Positions 3,601 to 57,588 of a DNA stretch of 64,000 nucleotides are shown here, one piece after another. How positions within the stretch are numbered: position 1 is the first letter of the stretch; every line of letters starts with the position of its first letter. Under the pieces are notes generated by a model. The model did not search any database. It had not been told where the DNA came from and worked only from the letters and a program-made list of their open reading frames with translations. The position numbers were made by a program, and so were the translations under genes. The stretch comes from Chthoniobacterales bacterium (GTDB lineage Bacteria; Verrucomicrobiota; Verrucomicrobiia; Chthoniobacterales; JAATET01): positions 381-64,380 of the forward strand of contig DATCRI010000087.1 of assembly GCA_036569045.1 (NCBI GenBank), written 5' to 3'.

Positions 3601-4334
3601 CAAACACACTCCCTCGTCACCTCCGACCTGACGAAACCGCGTATCCCGCCGAGGCCCGCGTGCGTTCCTACCTCGCGGTGAACTGCGCCTATTGCCACAT
3701 GGCCGGCGGCACGGCGCCCACGCAATGGGATGGCCGCCCGCACCTCACCCTCGCGCAGACCGGCCTCATCAATGGCAGCGCGGCAAACAACGGTGGCGAT
3801 CCGGCCAACAAGCTCGTCGTCTCCGGCGACGTGCCGCATTCGATCGTTTACAACCGTGTCGCCGCCGCCAACGGCTTCACCCGCATGCCTCCCCTCGGCT
3901 CGAACGAACTCGACCAGACGAGCATCGCATTGCTTCAGGACTGGATCGCCACGCAACTCCCGAACCGGCAGGACTACACGACCTGGCGCCACCAGAAATT
4001 CGGCTCGCCGAGTTCGCCCGAAGGCGAGCCGCAGCAAAATCCCGACTCCGACGCCATGGCCAACGAGGGCGAATACCTCACCGGCACCGACCCGCTGAAT
4101 GGCGGCAGCGCGTTCACCTATTCCCTCACGCCGGGCAGCAGCGGCGCGACGATCAGCTTCACGTTACCCGCGCTGCGCTCGTTCCAGATCGAAAGCTCGA
4201 CGGACCTGACCGCTTGGACGCCGTGGAATGCGCCCGGCAATGGCGGCCTGCCCGTCCCCGGCGTCCCGATTACGATCACGGGCGGAGTCGAGCATCCCCG
4301 ACAATTCTTCCGCGTGCGCATCTGGGAAAACTGA
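666..4334 (+). CDS. secreted multidomain protein: LamG-like lectin domain + Ig-like domain + glucose/sorbosone-dehydrogenase-type beta-propeller + two CxxCH haem-c motifs
   Basis: Track ORF 615-4334. ATG at 666 gives a signal-like N-terminus, MRRTFLAPVISLLSALVPSESDA. LamG-style region: NNWLGRSQF...YDEVRIYDHAMS. Propeller motifs GLLGLAFHP and NHNGGGLAFGPDGYLYISLGDEG. Haem motifs CLTCH and CAYCH, followed by FTRMPPLG. Confidence 0.75.
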   Translation: MRRTFLAPVISLLSALVPSESDAELVNRWSFNNPAGSVANGTVFTDSASGATATLRGNGATLNGAALALPGTTTGNASAANISAYVDLPNGILSSKTNVTIEIWATPISSKNWQRLVDFGRTTQAGDGLGAPGEWTGATAPGTTSASDNFMLSIQRGTNLSQQRFEAMLDGSATRLDTAIATTAGTQRHYVITCQSGVGVFPAGGRITWYADGASAGSIDVPYALSQIEDVNNWLGRSQFSGDSTSNAAYDEVRIYDHAMSAAEVASSRTAGANATFPPPAVQPDAITMHAGQKALIPVLANDSGSINPASVQIAQPPQHGTATPDSSGRILYTSTGGTIDTFTYRVSGAGGFSPPATVTVSLSSQLRLPSPTLNVPGTPPATAIQLVNALPGLTFSQPLALASPPGDAARLFICEKTGIVKVVPDVTLASPTQASFLNLPTLLGSRGETFVTDGEQGLLGLAFHPAYATNRFFYVFYSVRKADNLVYERVSRFTAQTGNPNAADTASEFVLIEQRDEASNHNGGGLAFGPDGYLYISLGDEGGQNDQYNNGQRIDRDFFAAIARIDVDRKPGSLDPNAHAAVPRDGGVARYAIPPDNPFVGATSFNGAAVTPANVRTELWAVGLRNPWRFSFDMQTGELWVADVGQNVYEEIDIVTKGGNYGWAYREGAHNGPKTAPGGFTSIDPIYEYTHGSGALQGNSVTGGLVYRGTRISSLFGKYIFGDYVSGNIWALTKNGATATVERITGEGGIVAFGSDPSNADILIADIDGSRILRIVTGPANDGYPPTLGATGLFADLADLSPNPGLLPYEPNLAFWSDHAIKRRWFAIPDTATRMTWSKDGMWTFPTGSIWVKHFDLDTTRGNPATKKRIETRVLVKTATSAYGVSYRWNDAGTDATLVPDEGVSFDVSVVENGSSRTQRWQIPSRTSCLTCHTPQAGSALSFTTRQLNQPFTMNGFIGNQLDLLAQGEYFANAVPAPNTLPRHLRPDETAYPAEARVRSYLAVNCAYCHMAGGTAPTQWDGRPHLTLAQTGLINGSAANNGGDPANKLVVSGDVPHSIVYNRVAAANGFTRMPPLGSNELDQTSIALLQDWIATQLPNRQDYTTWRHQKFGSPSSPEGEPQQNPDSDAMANEGEYLTGTDPLNGGSAFTYSLTPGSSGATISFTLPALRSFQIESSTDLTAWTPWNAPGNGGLPVPGVPITITGGVEHPRQFFRVRIWEN

Positions 4335-29772: not shown

Positions 29773-31161
29773 ATGTCCGCCGTCCTCGATAAAGCCGCTC
29801 CCCGCAAGGTGGGGATGATCAGCCTCGGCTGCGCCAAGAATCTCGTCGATGCCGAGGTGATGCTCGGCGACGCCGCCACCCGCGGCTACGAAGTCACCGC
29901 AAACGCCGACGACGCCGACGTGATCGTCGTGAACACCTGCGGCTTCATCGACTCCGCCAAGCAGGAATCCATCGACGCCATCCTCGACGCCGGCGCGAAG
30001 CTCCGCGAGGGCCAGAAACTCGTCGTGAGCGGCTGCCTCTCCCAGCGCTACTCCGGCGAACTCCGCAACGAGCTCCCCGAGGTCCACGCCTTCATCGGCC
30101 TCGACCAGGTCGCGCAATCCGGCGCCATCTTCGACTCCCTGTTCGACGACGACCACGCCGAGAGCGCGGTGAATCTCGTCACCCGCGGCTCCCGCTACAT
30201 TCCCGACTACACCACGCCGAAGTTCCAGCTCACCCCGGCGCACACCGCCTACGTCAAGATCGCCGAGGGCTGCAACCACCCCTGCAGCTTCTGCGTCATC
30301 CCCCAGATGCGCGGCAAACACCGCAGCCGCACCATCGACTCCGTCGTCCGCGAGACCCGCGAGCGCCTCGCCGCCGGCGTGCGCGAGATCAACCTCATCT
30401 CGCAGGACACCACCTACTACGGCATGGACCTCTGGGAGCAAAAGGCCTCCCCCACCCAGCCGATCGACAGCTCCCGCGGCCCCACGCTCGTCACCCTGCT
30501 CGACGAGCTCGGCCAGCTCGGCAAACCCAGCGACGAATTCTGGATCCGCCTGCTTTACACGCACCCCGCCCACTGGAGCGACGAGCTCATCGCCGCCATC
30601 GCGCGGAATCCCCGCGTCGTCCCCTACATCGACATGCCCCTCCAGCACATCCACGAGGGCATGCTCGGCACGATGAAGCGCCAGACCACCCGCCAGCACA
30701 TCGAGGACCTCATCCTCCGCCTGCGCGCCGGCATTCCGAATCTCGCCATCCGCACCACCTTCATCGTCGGCTTCCCCGGCGAGACCGACGAGCAATTCGA
30801 GAGCCTGCTCGAGTTCATCGAGCGCGTCCGCTTCGAGCGCCTCGGCGTCTTCGCCTACTCCCGCGAGGAAGGCTCCCGCGCCGCCAAGATGGAGGGCCAG
30901 ATCCCCACCGCCGTCAAAAACCGCCGCCACCGCCGCGCCATGAAGCTCCAGCAAAAGATCGCCGGAGAGCTCGCCGCCGCCCAGGTCGGCAGCACCCTCC
31001 GCGTGCTCGTCGAGCAGCCTCGCGTCGGCCGCACCATGCACGACGCCCCCGAGGTCGACTGCAAGGTCATCCTCACGAAAGACGCCCCCGTCGGGCAGTT
31101 CGTGGACGCCAAAGTCACCGGCACCCAGGTCTACGATCTCGTCGCCGAGCCGCTCCGCTAG
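29773..31161 (+). CDS. rimO: ribosomal protein S12 methylthiotransferase
   Basis: KVGMISLGCAKNLVDAEVMLG N-terminus. Radical-SAM motif EGCNHPCSFCVIPQMRG. C-terminal TRAM domain (LRVLVEQP...VTGTQVYDLVAE). Confidence 0.93.
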   Translation: MSAVLDKAAPRKVGMISLGCAKNLVDAEVMLGDAATRGYEVTANADDADVIVVNTCGFIDSAKQESIDAILDAGAKLREGQKLVVSGCLSQRYSGELRNELPEVHAFIGLDQVAQSGAIFDSLFDDDHAESAVNLVTRGSRYIPDYTTPKFQLTPAHTAYVKIAEGCNHPCSFCVIPQMRGKHRSRTIDSVVRETRERLAAGVREINLISQDTTYYGMDLWEQKASPTQPIDSSRGPTLVTLLDELGQLGKPSDEFWIRLLYTHPAHWSDELIAAIARNPRVVPYIDMPLQHIHEGMLGTMKRQTTRQHIEDLILRLRAGIPNLAIRTTFIVGFPGETDEQFESLLEFIERVRFERLGVFAYSREEGSRAAKMEGQIPTAVKNRRHRRAMKLQQKIAGELAAAQVGSTLRVLVEQPRVGRTMHDAPEVDCKVILTKDAPVGQFVDAKVTGTQVYDLVAEPLR

Positions 31162-31371
31162 GCAACCGCCGCGTTTTATCTGCTGAAGAAGCGCCTTTGC
31201 CGGCCTACGACGCCGTTTTGTCGGCTGACAAAGCCCCTTTGTCACCCAACAAAGTCGCTTTGTTGACCGACGAAGCTGTTTTGCTGACTGACGAAGCCAC
31301 TTCGTCGACTGAAGAAGCCGTTTTGTTGACTGAAGAAACGGCTTTGTCGGGTGACAAAACCGTTTTGTGAC
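31162..31371. repeat. tandem array of 9-10 copies of a 21-bp imperfectly palindromic unit (consensus about CTGACGAAGCCGTTTTGTCGA)
   Basis: Read directly, perfectly phased units:
- 31183 ctgaagaagcgcctttgccgg
- 31204 cctacgacgccgttttgtcgg
- 31225 ctgacaaagcccctttgtcac
- 31246 ccaacaaagtcgctttgttga
- 31267 ccgacgaagctgttttgctga
- 31288 ctgacgaagccacttcgtcga
- 31309 ctgaagaagccgttttgttga
- 31330 ctgaagaaacggctttgtcgg
- 31351 gtgacaaaaccgttttgtgac
There is also a degenerate unit at 31162. Confidence 0.9.
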
Positions 31372-31447
31372 CCTTTTCCGCGCCACGTTTCTCTGTAAAC
31401 GGCGCTCCGGGGGTCGCTTTGCGGCCTTACGAAAGCGAGCGACCGTC

Positions 31448-31846
31448 TCAGGCGGAATACACCGCGCCGTCGTCGAAGGATTTCTCCTCGCGGATCGGCA
31501 ACTCCTTCGCCTCGCGATCGAGTTCCTGGAAAAAGCAGCTCCGGTAGCCCGTGTGGCACGCGCCGCCGGCCTGTTCCACCTCGAAAAGCAGCACATCGCG
31601 GTCGCAATCCTGGAACCACCGCACCACACGCTGCGTGTGCCCGCTCGTCTCGCCCTTCAGCCAGAGCTTGCCGCGGGACCGGCTCCAATAGTGCATCATC
31701 CCCGTCTCCAGCGTCTTCTCGAGCGACTCGCGGTTGAGCCACGCGAACATCAGGATCCTGCCGGTCGGCGCCTCCGCACCGGGCACCGCCTCCTGCACGA
31801 TGGCGGGGATGAGGCCGTCCGCCGTAAACTTGAAATCAAATTCCAT
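31448..31846 (-). CDS. hisI: phosphoribosyl-AMP cyclohydrolase
   Basis: GLIPAIVQEA...ILMFAWLNRESLEKTLETGMMHYWSRSRGKLWLKGETSGHTQ...DCDRDVLLFEVEQAGGACHTGYRSCFF is the HisI signature. It is monofunctional (no HisE part). Confidence 0.92.
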   Translation of the reverse strand: MEFDFKFTADGLIPAIVQEAVPGAEAPTGRILMFAWLNRESLEKTLETGMMHYWSRSRGKLWLKGETSGHTQRVVRWFQDCDRDVLLFEVEQAGGACHTGYRSCFFQELDREAKELPIREEKSFDDGAVYSA

Positions 31847-54582: not shown

Positions 54583-55911
54583 CTACCGCATCCAGATCCG
54601 CGACAGCCGCCGCAGGCGCCCCGCGATCACGTTGCCATCGCCCCGCGGCGTGCTCGCGGCCTCCACCAGCCACGTCACCGCCGCGAAGGCCGCGACGTCC
54701 GCCAGCAGCAACACGGCGAAATAAATGCTGTGCCGCCGCCAGGCGAATTCGCCCCAGCCCGTCGCCATTTCGTAGCCGCCGATCGCATCGAGCGTCACCC
54801 CCCACATCACCGGCGCCGCGCCCAGCCCGAGGCTGGTGATCACCGTGAACAGCGCAAAGAAATGGTTCCGGCCCATTTCCGGCATCGTCGCCATCGCGAT
54901 GCGCGTGTTCGCCACGTTGAAATTCGCCGCCGCGAGGCCGGTGAAGAAATTGAGCGCCGTCACGATCGGCACCGTGCACGGCCACACGCCGCCCGCGATG
55001 AGCAGCCAGCCGATCAGCACGAGGGCGAAGATCGCCAGCGCCACGCGCAGCACGGGCTTGCTCCCCACGCCATCGATCACGCGCGCCGTGATCATCAGCG
55101 AGAGAATCGGCCCCACGAAAGCCACGCCCGAGAGCATCAGGATCATGTCCGCCTCGAAGTGTTGGAACTCCCGGAGGAACTCGACCGTGAAGACGCTCAG
55201 GCTCCCGATCACAAGCATGAACAGCAGGTTGAACCCCAGCAGCCGCAGGAACGGCGAATGCCGCAGCATGGCCAACCACGGCACCGGATGCGCGGAACGC
55301 GTCATCGCCTCGCCCGTCGGCGCGTCCGGGATGCGTTTGATGAACCACAGGCTCGCCGACCCGCCCACCGCACTGATGAGGAACACGACGGAAAATTCCC
55401 ACGGATCGACGCGCCCGCGCATCACCCATGCGCACGCCACGAGCGAGAGCAGGCTGCCGGCGTAGGTAAAAAGCTGGTCGCGTGCGAGGAAGCGCCCTCG
55501 CACCGGCTCGGGAATGATCGCCGCGATCCACGGCATCCAGCCCGCCGAGGAAATCCCGCGCAGCAGGTTGAAAATGAAGAGCGCGGCGAGGAGCAGCGCG
55601 AGCCTCGAGGTATTGTCGAGGAAGCCGAGCAGCGGAATCACCGCCACCAGATAAATGAACACCGTTCGCAGTCCCCAGCCACTCAGCACGAACTGGCGAT
55701 ACGAATAGCGATCCAGAAATCGCGCCGCCGGCAGCTGCATCACCGTCATCAGCGGCGTAAACGCGGCAATGATGCCGATCACCGTCGACGAGGCGCCAAG
55801 CGATTTGCCGAACAGCACGATCGGCGCCCCCATCATCACCTGGAACGCGATGGCGTTGAACAGATTGAACCAATGCGAGTTGAACGCTCCGCGTGGATAG
55901 GACGGCGACAC
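54583..55911 (-). CDS. MFS transporter
   Basis: 442 aa with 12 predicted TM helices. The loop motif LPAARFLDRYSYRQ between TM2 and TM3 resembles the MFS signature. The antisense frame here forms the spurious N-terminal extension of the uvrC track ORF. Confidence 0.8.
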   Translation of the reverse strand: MSPSYPRGAFNSHWFNLFNAIAFQVMMGAPIVLFGKSLGASSTVIGIIAAFTPLMTVMQLPAARFLDRYSYRQFVLSGWGLRTVFIYLVAVIPLLGFLDNTSRLALLLAALFIFNLLRGISSAGWMPWIAAIIPEPVRGRFLARDQLFTYAGSLLSLVACAWVMRGRVDPWEFSVVFLISAVGGSASLWFIKRIPDAPTGEAMTRSAHPVPWLAMLRHSPFLRLLGFNLLFMLVIGSLSVFTVEFLREFQHFEADMILMLSGVAFVGPILSLMITARVIDGVGSKPVLRVALAIFALVLIGWLLIAGGVWPCTVPIVTALNFFTGLAAANFNVANTRIAMATMPEMGRNHFFALFTVITSLGLGAAPVMWGVTLDAIGGYEMATGWGEFAWRRHSIYFAVLLLADVAAFAAVTWLVEAASTPRGDGNVIAGRLRRLSRIWMR

Positions 55912-55937
55912 AAATACGTTTCAACCACACCGCCCGC

Positions 55938-55989
55938 GGAGGACACGGAGATAATCTCAAATTTTTCTGTCATCCTCTCCGTGCCCTCC
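55938..55989. repeat. 13-bp inverted repeat (1 mismatch) with 26-nt spacer in the MFS/uvrC divergent intergenic region
   Basis: GGAGGACACGGAG (55938-55950) and CTCCGTGCCCTCC (55977-55989). A further CTCTGTGG lies at 55995-56002. The core CACGGAG/CACAGAG resembles the CACGGAT/CACAGAT motifs flanking the GxxExxY gene. Confidence 0.8.
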
Positions 55990-56016
55990 GCGACCTCTGT
56001 GGTAAATTTTTCGCTC

Positions 56017-57588
56017 ATGCCCACCGAGAGAACCGACTTTGCCGTGAAGCTGCGCGACGTCCCGCACAAGCCGGGCGTCTACGTGATGCGGGATCGCCTG
56101 AAGAAAGTGATCTACGTTGGGAAGGCCCGCGACCTCCGCAAGCGCGTGGGCAATTACTTCATGCCGTCGAAGAAGATGACGGCGGATCCCAAGACACGCG
56201 CCCTCATCGACAGCATCTGGGATTTCGAATGGCATGTCGTAAAAAGCGAGGCCGAGGCCGTGCTCTACGAAGGCCGGCTCATCAAGGAGTTCCGGCCGAA
56301 ATACAACGTCAGCTTTCGCGACGACAAACGCTTCCTCCTCGTCCGCGTGAATCTCGACGAGCCCTATCCGCGCTTCGGCCTCACGCGGCTGAAAAAGGAC
56401 GACGGCGCGCGTTACTTCGGCCCGTTCGCCCACAGCGGCGCCCTGCGCACCACGCTCAATGCCATTCGCAAGCGCTTCGGCCTGCGCACCTGTGCGCCGC
56501 GCGTGCCGGATGAGGGCGACTACCGCCATTGCAGCAACGACATCATCAAGAACTGCTCCGCGCCCTGCATCGGCCGGGCGACGCAGGAGGACTACCGGCG
56601 TCGCGTGGACGCGGCCTGCGAGTTTCTCGAGGGCCAGTCGACGCAGATGATCGAGCAGGTCGAAGCCGAGATGAAAGCCGCCGCCGAGAAACTCGATTTC
56701 GAAAAGGCCGCCCAGCTTCGCAACCTGCTCGACGACCTGCGCACCACCCGCCGGCCGATGACGCGCTACGTGCACAAGGCGCTGCCCAGTGCAATCGACC
56801 CGCAAAGCGACCTCCTCGCGCTCAAGGATGCCCTCGGCCTCGAGCGACCGCCGCGCATCATGGAATGCTTCGACATCTCGAACATCAGCGCCACGCACAT
56901 CGTCGCCTCGATGGTGCGCTTCCGCGCCGGCGTTCCGGATCGCGCGAATTACCGCCGGTTTCGCATCGCCGGCGTGAGGGGCCAGAACGATTTCGCAAGC
57001 ATGGCGGAAGTCGTCCGGCGCCGCTACGCACGCATTCTGCGGGAAGCCGCGACCGCCGCCGGGGAGGACGCCGAGTTCAACCAGGAAGGCCCTTACGACG
57101 CCGCGCTCCGAGCCACCGAGAATCCAAAATCCAAAATCCAAAATCCAAAATTTCCGGGCTTTCCCGATCTCATTATCGTCGACGGTGGCAAGGGCCAGCT
57201 GAGCAGTGCGTGCACGGAACTCCAGCGCCTCGGGCTCTCCGCGGTGCCAATCATTGGACTCGCCAAGGAATTTGAGGAGATTTACCGCCCCGGCCAGGCC
57301 ATGCCGATCCGGCTGCCCGCGGAAAGCGGCGCCCTCAAGCTCCTCCAGCGCATCCGCGACGAGGCGCACCGCTTCGCGAATGGCTACCACAGCCTGCTGC
57401 TCAAGCGCCGCATCAGCGAAAGCCGCCTCGACGACATTCCCGGCGTGAGCGAGGCGCGCAAAAAGGCGCTCCTTGCCAGATTTGGCAGCGTCGCCCGGCT
57501 CAAACGCGCCACTCCCGAGGCCCTTGCCGAGCTCCCCGGCATCAGCCCGCGACTCGCCGGAGAAATTCTCGCCGCCCTCGCCGGCTGA
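56017..57588 (+). CDS. uvrC: excinuclease ABC subunit C
   Basis: ATG at 56017. GIY-YIG motif (PGVYVMRDRLKKVIYVGKARDLRKRVGNYF). UVR domain (AEKLDFEKAAQLRNLLDDL). Endonuclease domain (IMECFDISNISATHIVASMVRF, PDLIIVDGGKGQL). C-terminal (HhH)2 (LDDIPGVSEARKKALLARFGS). Confidence 0.93.
   Translation: MPTERTDFAVKLRDVPHKPGVYVMRDRLKKVIYVGKARDLRKRVGNYFMPSKKMTADPKTRALIDSIWDFEWHVVKSEAEAVLYEGRLIKEFRPKYNVSFRDDKRFLLVRVNLDEPYPRFGLTRLKKDDGARYFGPFAHSGALRTTLNAIRKRFGLRTCAPRVPDEGDYRHCSNDIIKNCSAPCIGRATQEDYRRRVDAACEFLEGQSTQMIEQVEAEMKAAAEKLDFEKAAQLRNLLDDLRTTRRPMTRYVHKALPSAIDPQSDLLALKDALGLERPPRIMECFDISNISATHIVASMVRFRAGVPDRANYRRFRIAGVRGQNDFASMAEVVRRRYARILREAATAAGEDAEFNQEGPYDAALRATENPKSKIQNPKFPGFPDLIIVDGGKGQLSSACTELQRLGLSAVPIIGLAKEFEEIYRPGQAMPIRLPAESGALKLLQRIRDEAHRFANGYHSLLLKRRISESRLDDIPGVSEARKKALLARFGSVARLKRATPEALAELPGISPRLAGEILAALAG
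57121..57151 (+). repeat. heptanucleotide microsatellite (AATCCAA)x4 + AAT inside uvrC
   Basis: aatccaa aatccaa aatccaa aatccaa aat, read directly. It is in frame as NPKSKIQNPK in a linker just before PDLIIVDGGKGQL. It is strikingly AT-rich relative to its surroundings. Confidence 0.95.

Follow-up and report, generated by a model that had tools for sequence, protein, structure and literature searches.

Between the convergent genes rimO and hisI of an uncultured Chthoniobacterales bacterium (Verrucomicrobiota) lies a tandem array of 21-bp units, contained in a stretch of 64,000 nucleotides of contig DATCRI010000087.1 that we analyzed as a whole (hereafter, the window). The array takes up 210 bp (73%) of the 286-bp rimO-hisI spacer and would fall in the 3' untranslated region of rimO. 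A previous inspection of this DNA without database searches (the sequence-only reading) described nine clear units and one degenerate unit in this position, and a unit table, Tandem Repeats Finder (TRF) and autocorrelation bore this out. The features of the locus are listed below; Pfam labels for the two genes were taken from the orthologous locus.

29773-31161, plus strand: rimO, an open reading frame (ORF) whose product is 100% identical to RimO of an NCBI Chthoniobacterales metagenome-assembled genome (MAG); Pfam UPF0004, Radical_SAM and TRAM_2 on the ortholog
31162-31182, plus strand: degenerate unit 0, GCAACCGCCGCGTTTTATCTG, directly 3' of the rimO stop codon
31183-31371, plus strand: nine abutting 21-bp units with consensus CTGACGAAGCCGTTTTGTCGR (TRF, pattern scan, unit table, autocorrelation, dyad test)
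31225-31266, plus strand: units 3 and 4, the perfect 7-bp palindromes GACAAAG-ccc-CTTTGTC and AACAAAG-tcg-CTTTGTT; folding singly at -3.5 to -6.9 kcal/mol
31257-31286, plus strand: junction hairpin formed by the right arm of unit 4 and the left arm of unit 5 (31257-31276), followed by TGTTTTG; the sole terminator-like consensus match in the spacer
31288-31308, plus strand: unit 6, the perfect palindrome GACGAAG-cca-CTTCGTC; folding energies -7.0 (plus strand) and -8.7 kcal/mol (minus strand)
31372-31447, no strand assigned: non-repetitive right flank up to the hisI stop; its two modest hairpins have fold z = -0.85 and +0.5, not significant
31448-31846, minus strand: hisI (PRA-CH), an ORF convergent with rimO; PF01502 on the ortholog

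The nine units start at 31183, 31204, 31225, 31246, 31267, 31288, 31309, 31330 and 31351, and the last ends at 31371. In each unit, positions 3-9 form a left arm and positions 13-19 a right arm, on either side of a 3-nt centre (10-12); measured between their centres, the arms are 10-11 bp apart. As neighbouring units abut, a right arm is complementary also to the left arm of the next unit, which places dyad axes every 10.5 bp. Unit 0 is in register with the others and retains consensus A4, C5 and T13-T16. TRF placed the repeat at 31207-31368 (period 21, 7.7 copies, 70% matches) with the top score in the window, 114. The autocorrelation maximum was 0.63 at lag 21, with all other lags at or below 0.35. 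Both analyses gave an exact 21-bp period, in agreement with the earlier remark that one unit spans two helical turns. The pattern GACRAAGNNNYTTYGTC, with up to two mismatches, matched 15 times in the window compared with 3.4 +/- 2.5 times in shuffled sequences (0 of 100 reached 15); all matches lay within the array, and the scan found no further copy of the unit elsewhere in the window. G+C content was 52% in the array versus 64% in the window.

The description of the units as palindromes held for the array as a whole. At the best centre, 69% of positions formed Watson-Crick pairs, a value equalled by none of 500 column permutations that preserved periodicity. However, perfect 7-bp palindromes were present in only three of the nine units, and these alone fold singly into the unit hairpin, whereas a plus-strand hairpin of 7-8 bp had been proposed for every unit. 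One example quoted in support, CGACGAAG-cca-CTTCGTCG, actually reads TGACGAAG-cca-CTTCGTCG.

Folding of both strands, an analysis that the sequence-only reading had suggested, gave z-scores of -5.1 (plus) and -4.0 (minus). The two strands fold about alike, as those of any DNA palindrome would. The need of several units for G-U pairs on the plus strand had been offered as an argument for an RNA function; we counted 14-15 G.T pairs versus 7-9 A.C pairs there, a difference for which composition suffices (p = 0.28-0.42). Terminator-like sites numbered 2 in the region versus 1.4 +/- 1.2 in shuffles, that is, at chance level, and the stems of the array are A/T-rich. Searches with 4227 Rfam covariance models at permissive thresholds returned only chance-level matches to miRNA precursors in the window (E = 1.6-9.8), and in ten related loci nothing fell on any array; the array matches no described RNA family, and the sequence-only reading had not recognised it as a described repeat family. 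We also considered a sponge for a CsrA-type protein, but GGA is present only in units of two of the related arrays described below (L098 and L104) and is absent from the window array and the others.

The array is non-coding. Four reading frames run across it largely without stop codons, one on the plus strand and all three on the minus strand (two minus-strand frames had been noted previously); at 64% G+C, chance alone would leave several open. In comparison with the second array-bearing strain described below, codon changes in the plus-frame ORF at 31197-31370 (DEAVLLT..., a 7-residue repeat) were non-synonymous in 9 cases and synonymous in 1, none of the six frames had a synonymous excess between the two strains, and no Pfam family matched the translations of the array. 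The invariant columns of the unit include third-codon positions of the open plus frame. The equivalent plus frame is closed in Prevotellaceae arrays, and others are closed in Brocadiia and Flavobacteriales arrays. The earlier conclusions that the array is neither a gene nor a CRISPR locus, the latter because spacers are lacking, therefore stood.

The array was found in one additional strain, on a Joint Genome Institute (JGI) contig (L081), with 99% identity in RimO and DNA identities of 98.7% in rimO and 97.5% in hisI. Its presence in two independent assemblies indicates that it is not an assembly artefact. The array of L081 has 11 units plus one degenerate unit between the same flanks, compared with nine plus one in the window; variation in copy number had been proposed as something to look for in the orthologous spacer. 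Seven units are colinear, one of them identical and the rest differing by 1-3 bases; unit 4 is unchanged, and unit 0 is conserved except for one substitution. In the region of window unit 2, three different units stand in L081. Orthologous units differed at 15 of 168 sites (~9%) versus 1.3-2.8% nearby. The difference from the 4.4-kb left flank, with 56 of 4410 sites changed, was significant (p = 2e-8). The spacer also differed more than 4-fold degenerate sites (12 of 313; p = 0.003) and more than two other intergenic stretches (0 of 112 bp; p = 7e-5). The unique right flank (31372-31447, aligned with 4642-4717 of L081) changed at 10 of 76 positions, as fast as the array, and several of these changes were in hairpin arms. 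On this comparison, the whole spacer, not the repeats alone, is a local hot spot of divergence.

No array was detected in relatives with 92, 89 and 88% RimO identity, in which other DNA fills the spacer:

L082, 1815-2849: EamA transporter gene
L083, 4421-5158: methyltransferase gene
L084, 4390-4517: unrelated 128-bp hairpin-rich region

The genes near the array (ftsK, a HTH_25 gene, rimO, hisI, a DPBB_1 gene and pfkB) are syntenic in these array-less relatives, and the array was also absent from 80 more distant metagenome rimO loci. The rimO-hisI junction is a variable site among close relatives, and the array itself appears to be young, strain-variable, fast-evolving and dispensable. The sequence-only reading had named, among the marks of a minisatellite with no function, restriction to a strain and lack of related sites elsewhere. 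The former was observed at the locus, where the array occurs in two near-identical strains only, but the latter was not, since related arrays exist in other phyla. A different repeat was seen downstream of rimO in a more distant locus with 77% RimO identity (L013, 5503-5775, plus strand). The product of the gene there has 90 aa, looks secreted and contains Cys/Lys/Gly-rich repeats of 6 aa (CKGxxx; 18 bp), which are unrelated to the 21-bp array.

Related arrays were identified by scanning 185,579 species genomes (596 Gb) with a two-unit pattern built from the window array. Eleven stretches were returned, nine of which were true intergenic arrays of period 21 with 6-18 units. They were found in a Flavobacteriales MAG (three loci), two Pyrinomonadaceae species (unit CTGACAAAGCTCTTTTGTCAG), a Prevotellaceae MAG (two loci), Chitinophagaceae (one) and Verrucomicrobiota (one). 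The other two, a coding Ser/Thr/Glu repeat (L085) and a chance match (L086), are unrelated to this class of arrays. Copy number, intergenic placement and dyad symmetry reaching positions 1-3 and 19-21 were not imposed by the pattern.

Two of the nine arrays, L087 (Flavobacteriales) and L093 (Verrucomicrobiota), directly precede genes of the same strand that encode small homologous proteins (blastp E = 6e-16), both of which contain a C-terminal fibronectin type III (FN3) domain. Seven further loci were reached through the protein (L098, L102/103, L104, L105/106, L107, L108 and L109/110), and all had an upstream array. Thus, each of the nine FN3-gene loci with visible upstream sequence, from at least four phyla, carries a 21-bp array within ~50-400 bp of the start codon. 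In these loci the strongest periodicity was exactly 21 bp, with lag-21 autocorrelation of 0.48-0.94 (0.63 in the window array), compared with a background of one period-21 array in 479 kb of control loci. The genes are the following.

L087, 6586-7263, minus strand: FN3-family gene
L093, 1080-1703, plus strand: FN3-family gene
L098, 4001-4627: FN3-family gene
L102, 4001-4624: FN3-family gene
L104, 826-1539: FN3-family gene
L105, 737-1363: FN3-family gene
L107, 2850-3464: FN3-family gene
L108, 2296-3003: FN3-family gene
L109, 6001-6627: FN3-family gene

The sequences of the FN3-linked units are unrelated between lineages (GACAAAA/TTTTGTC, GACATAG/CTGTGTC, ACGGAAA/TTTCCGT, GGGAAA/TTTCCC, GAACATT/AATGTTC and GATCG/CGATC). 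Between L093 and L098, the proteins are 86% identical and the leaders nearly identical, and the array units are unrelated. In L093 and L104, register is held over 300-440 bp in which units are only ~50% alike. The L093 array showed strong within-unit covariation: 72% of cells were paired, compared with 65.0 +/- 2.4 for 500 shuffles, none of which was as high (z = 4.6 in a separate test), and with 28-45% in slid controls; 16 cells were changed on both sides versus 8.7 in shuffles (0 of 500). Its sense strand had 22 G.U versus 8 A.C pairs (p = 0.03, composition-corrected). These results for L093 favour single-stranded stem-loops, or hairpin-templated mutation that would regenerate palindromes, over simple recognition of half-sites. 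Consensus scans for promoters and terminators, carried out in the window and three FN3 loci, were uninformative.

A protein search identified 23 relatives of the L093 protein, and a profile search at least 327 proteins of ~207 aa. Named members came from MAGs of Planctomycetota, Acidobacteriota, Verrucomicrobiota, Ignavibacteriales and Saccharimonas; Bacteroidota are also represented. Most members sit on very short contigs. An AlphaFold model (predicted local distance difference test score 91.5) consists of a helix at residues 13-27, a 54-residue helix at 40-93 and the FN3 domain, which was the only part recognised by Pfam, PHROGs, NCBIfam, PADLOC, a PDB sequence profile or Foldseek (PDB and viral models). 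An N-terminal ribbon-helix-helix DNA-binding motif was considered, and the two helices of the model give it no support. The idea that the array encodes an N-terminal extension of the FN3 protein was rejected, as the array is open and in frame in only one of nine loci (L105). Many family members do have an N-terminal extension of ~33 aa containing two or three heptads, xRYGxxx or RYDxxxx (e.g., MTTYRYGDPATRYGVARY), as in L093 (981-1079), L098 (~3900-4000), L105 (641-736) and proteins P0127, P0128, P0129 and P0131. These heptads are encoded by 21-nt repeats, so that 21-nt periodicity runs into the start of the ORF.

Genes beside FN3-linked arrays vary, and nuclease, defence or mobile-element genes are frequent among them. 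The L087 array adjoins a full-length phrog_34709 protein with a Mrr-like C-terminus; the other neighbours include a Hjc/YraN-like fragment, a HSDR_N-type nuclease, a PD-Lambda-5_A-like protein and a tyrosine integrase. A GmrSD gene is found near the array of Chitinophagaceae (L094), which lacks an FN3 gene. The neighbours of this kind are:

L087, 3718-5565, minus strand: nuclease, defence or mobile-element gene
L093, 1-318: nuclease, defence or mobile-element gene
L098, 1286-2152, minus strand: nuclease, defence or mobile-element gene
L102, 4723-6114: nuclease, defence or mobile-element gene
L107, 598-1971: nuclease, defence or mobile-element gene
L094, 2227-3891: nuclease, defence or mobile-element gene

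Such neighbours suggest that the arrays occur in variable islands. The FN3 family was absent from phage and plasmid collections searched with tblastn, and blastn of these collections with the array returned nothing relevant. Between the FN3 and phrog_34709 genes of L087 (5748-5820, plus strand), a match to the c4-2 antisense RNA was near threshold (35.9 bits vs 41).

Arrays without an FN3-family gene nearby are referred to as orphans; no such gene was found near any of them. Of six with both flanks visible, five are placed between convergent genes; the genes around the sixth are co-directional. A Flavobacteriales genome (OY769938.1) contains both kinds: one FN3-linked array (L087) and two orphans (L090 and L091) share a unit and have no homology in their flanks. 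Two features adjoin the Prevotellaceae arrays: a long inverted repeat directly upstream of one (L089, 300-466), in which heptamer runs, (GAATTAT)n ... (ATAATTC)n, surround ~80 bp, and, right at the end of one, a match close to threshold for the Acido-Lenti-1 RNA motif (L095, 3968-4014, minus strand; 31.6 bits vs a gathering threshold of 37).

A full-text literature search found no description of such arrays; the nearest described elements were palindromic amphipathic repeat coding elements (PARCELs) and repetitive extragenic palindromic (REP) sequences. REPs are extragenic, are located mostly between convergent or co-directional ORFs and include GTAG- and CGTC-tagged superfamilies (PMC3733652); the mostly convergent placement of the orphans is typical of them (PMC3733652). 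The array resembles REPs, and the bacterial interspersed mosaic elements (BIMEs) that they form, in its imperfect palindromes (20-40 bp in REPs; here 21 bp with 7-9-bp arms), its extragenic position downstream of a gene and its presence or absence among close relatives. REPs may also be clustered and are thought to be transcribed as hairpins. However, REPs are inverted pairs with linkers, whereas the array units are strictly head-to-tail with a 21-bp period. GTAG is absent from the array, and CGTC (GACG on the plus strand) is present in three of nine units, within an arm and not as an end tag. REPs are dispersed in hundreds of copies; in the 64 kb covered, one locus of the array was found. No REP-associated tyrosine transposase (RAYT, an HUH tyrosine transposase) was seen in the 64 kb; the gene linked to the class encodes the FN3 protein.

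Other known systems share part of this architecture. Like minisatellites or variable-number tandem repeats, e.g., the mycobacterial interspersed repetitive units (MIRU), the array is an intergenic run of tandem units that differs in copy number from strain to strain (9-10 vs 11-12) by slippage of whole units; unlike in these, each unit is palindromic, and arrays of the same period recur beside one gene family across phyla. CRISPR loci likewise have short, weakly palindromic direct repeats (21-37 bp), lineage-specific sequence with a kept architecture and orphan arrays, but here units abut without spacers, and no cas genes adjoin the loci examined. ParR-parC, iterons and ARG boxes also consist of helix-phased repeats (the array period is 2 x 10.5 bp) with dyad sites, and cooperative binding on one face would explain a fixed period. 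Tandem ARG boxes, with 18 bp plus 3 bp, have the same spacing of 21 bp. In contrast to such systems, the array has no linked gene for partition, replication or a repressor, no plasmid or phage match was found, up to ~20 units occur, and the unit-specific compensatory changes in L093 are unexpected for half-site recognition. PARCELs are 25-residue (75-bp) repeats within ORFs that are encoded by dyad-symmetric DNA (PMC2996958). They share with the array tandem repetition, dyad symmetry and sporadic occurrence across clades, which suggests horizontal spread, but differ in period and in being coding. Intrinsic terminators have a G+C-rich stem-loop with a U-tract immediately after it; the junction hairpin gave one consensus match in the array, with matches no more numerous than in shuffles and with A/T-rich stems. 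With the FN3-linked class, the window array shares the 21-bp period and dyad symmetry, but the window has no FN3 gene, and membership would be possible only as an orphan of the L090 and L091 kind.

The explanation that we tentatively prefer, with confidence somewhat short of even, is that the window array is an orphan of the FN3-linked 21-bp class: a REP-like, hairpin-capable minisatellite that is dispensable and at most shapes the 3' end of rimO. On this view, the array belongs to the class by architecture and probably also by descent. In this explanation, the two inverted arms of 7-9 bp around a 3-nt centre would allow single-stranded DNA or RNA to fold each unit into a short stem-loop. Slipped-strand events would add or remove whole units, with unit turnover several times that of the surrounding DNA. 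The canonical copy of the class would be the one just upstream of the gene for the ~207-aa helical and FN3 protein, from which units could seed arrays at unrelated intergenic sites; the window array may have landed in a permissive zone between convergent genes, where it is dispensable. At most, stem-loops with U-rich right arms on the 3' end of rimO might damp read-through into antisense hisI or slow 3'-exonucleases. The parts of this explanation that the analysis demonstrated are the structure of the array, its lack of coding function, its unstable sequence and copy number, its restriction to one lineage, the FN3-linked class itself and the orphans of a single genome.

Several observations weigh against this explanation. 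No FN3-family gene was detected in the 64-kb window by tblastn or profile search, and the descent from the FN3-linked class is for this reason something that we infer; hairpin formation in vivo and any effect on the 3' end are inferred as well. The likeness of the cross-phylum matches was partly imposed by the window-derived pattern. The unit of a Brocadiia array found independently of the pattern, CTGACATAGGGGCTGTGTCGA, agrees with the window consensus in 15 of its 21 positions, which counts in favour of the class, but a rough chance estimate that allows for palindromy and multiple comparisons is ~0.07. Dyad symmetry in the FN3-linked arrays was significant by permutation test in L093, L102, L104 and L105 and not significant in L087, L098, L107, L108 and L109, so the universal feature of these arrays is their period. 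Within-unit covariation in the window array was weak (78.4% paired vs 75.6% in shuffles, 40 of 500 of which were as high). In addition, a period that stays at 21 across phyla despite wholly changed sequences is unlike a purely selfish hairpin satellite and points to helical phasing or another constraint. Both the 3'-end effect and the binding of a protein to the array are predictions from sequence.

An extended form of this explanation, possible but doubtful in our view, would make the array an orphan of a cross-phylum module. This module would consist of a phase-locked, hypervariable, hairpin-capable 21-bp array and the ~207-aa helical-hairpin/FN3 protein, with the protein or a partner acting on the DNA or RNA of the array and units seeded at new sites. 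Viewed in isolation, the window array, a small satellite that can be dispensed with, would be of little importance. The importance lies in an uncharacterised FN3 family of at least four phyla that was preceded by a 21-bp array in all nine loci examined, the sequence of which was replaced even between close relatives. An architecture that stays fixed while the sequence runs free is what once drew attention to CRISPR repeats and REP/RAYT systems. If the protein does interact with the array, the two would form a repeat-based system that is new, in environmental phyla that have received little study, and would provide a concrete explanation for orphan palindromic minisatellites such as the window array; as a module of repeat and protein, it would have no described counterpart.

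The sequence-only reading had considered both a DNA-binding array and a multi-hairpin RNA. It seems unlikely that the array is a phased DNA-binding lattice, in which each unit is a dyad site for a dimeric protein and two helical turns per unit allow cooperative polymerisation on one face, as in ParR-parC, omega and ArgR. The binder could be encoded elsewhere and is possibly the FN3-family protein. Such a lattice would account for a period of exactly 21 bp in all nine FN3-linked loci and all orphans despite wholly different units, for the register kept in L093 and L104, and for arms 10-11 bp apart. The palindromy of the window array stems from the column consensus and not from unit-specific compensation, as recognition of half-sites would predict. 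A likeness to operators is also seen in small phage arrays with similar palindromes at 21-bp spacing; pattern scans of viral contigs detected only two of these AT-rich repeats, with 2-3 copies of ACAAA-N5-TTTGT (L096, 4594-4650; L097, 4683-4790), reminiscent of repressor operators. However, no par, rep or regulator gene adjoins the array, its neighbours are conserved in array-less relatives, and close relatives dispense with it. The model of the FN3 protein has no recognised DNA-binding fold, with fold searches matching the FN3 domain alone, and the covariation in L093 would not be expected from half-sites.

A purely local origin, in which slippage amplified a terminator-like hairpin 3' of rimO in one lineage and the likeness to arrays in other phyla is coincidental, also strikes us as unlikely. 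It fits the confinement to two near-identical strains, the lack of a second copy in 64 kb and the fast, apparently unconstrained divergence. Moreover, one matching unit is enough to make a tandem array match a two-unit pattern, and chance hits are expected in 185,579 genomes; 2 of the 11 hits were indeed unrelated. Against coincidence, the remaining matches share the traits that the pattern did not impose, other members of the protein family were reached without the pattern and all carry period-21 arrays, and orphan and FN3-linked arrays are documented together in one genome.

We give rather less credence to a functional multi-hairpin RNA, cotranscribed with rimO as a cluster of terminators or stabilisers or as a scaffold for many copies of one protein; for the class, the corresponding RNA would lie upstream of the FN3 gene, as a leader or as a separate molecule. 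The other hairpins of the spacer are all found beyond the array as seen from the rimO stop codon, so a rimO transcript would run through the array. Its right arms are T-rich (TTTTGT) on the rimO strand only, which is the geometry of a hairpin with a U-tract, and one terminator consensus was matched. The stable plus-strand fold, the location of FN3-linked arrays on the sense strand of the gene, and the compensatory covariation and G.U excess in L093 are consistent with such a role. In the window array, however, the G.U/A.C asymmetry is not significant, the minus strand folds nearly as well, only three of nine units fold alone, and terminator-like matches do not exceed those in shuffles. Other arrays, e.g., that with the Brocadiia unit, lack a U-tract, no Rfam family matches, and an RNA function leaves the fixed 21-nt period unexplained.

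Finally, a small gene or gene fragment for a 7-residue repeat peptide is very improbable: the period does equal seven codons, four frames are open, a gene caller predicted ORFs within some FN3-linked arrays and one of 36 aa within that of L081, and palindromic coding repeats have precedent (PMC2996958), but codon changes, Pfam searches and invariant third-codon positions argue against it as described above, no frame is open in every array, and open frames are expected by chance at this G+C content.

One other repeat was observed in the window, a perfect AATCCAA heptanucleotide repeat of 4.4 copies (57121-57151) inside an ORF of 952 aa (54730-57588, plus strand), which we take to be possibly uvrC on the basis of the downstream motif DLIIVDGGKGQL. 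The length of this unit is not a multiple of three and slippage would therefore shift the reading frame; the unit is AT-rich in a genome of 64% G+C.

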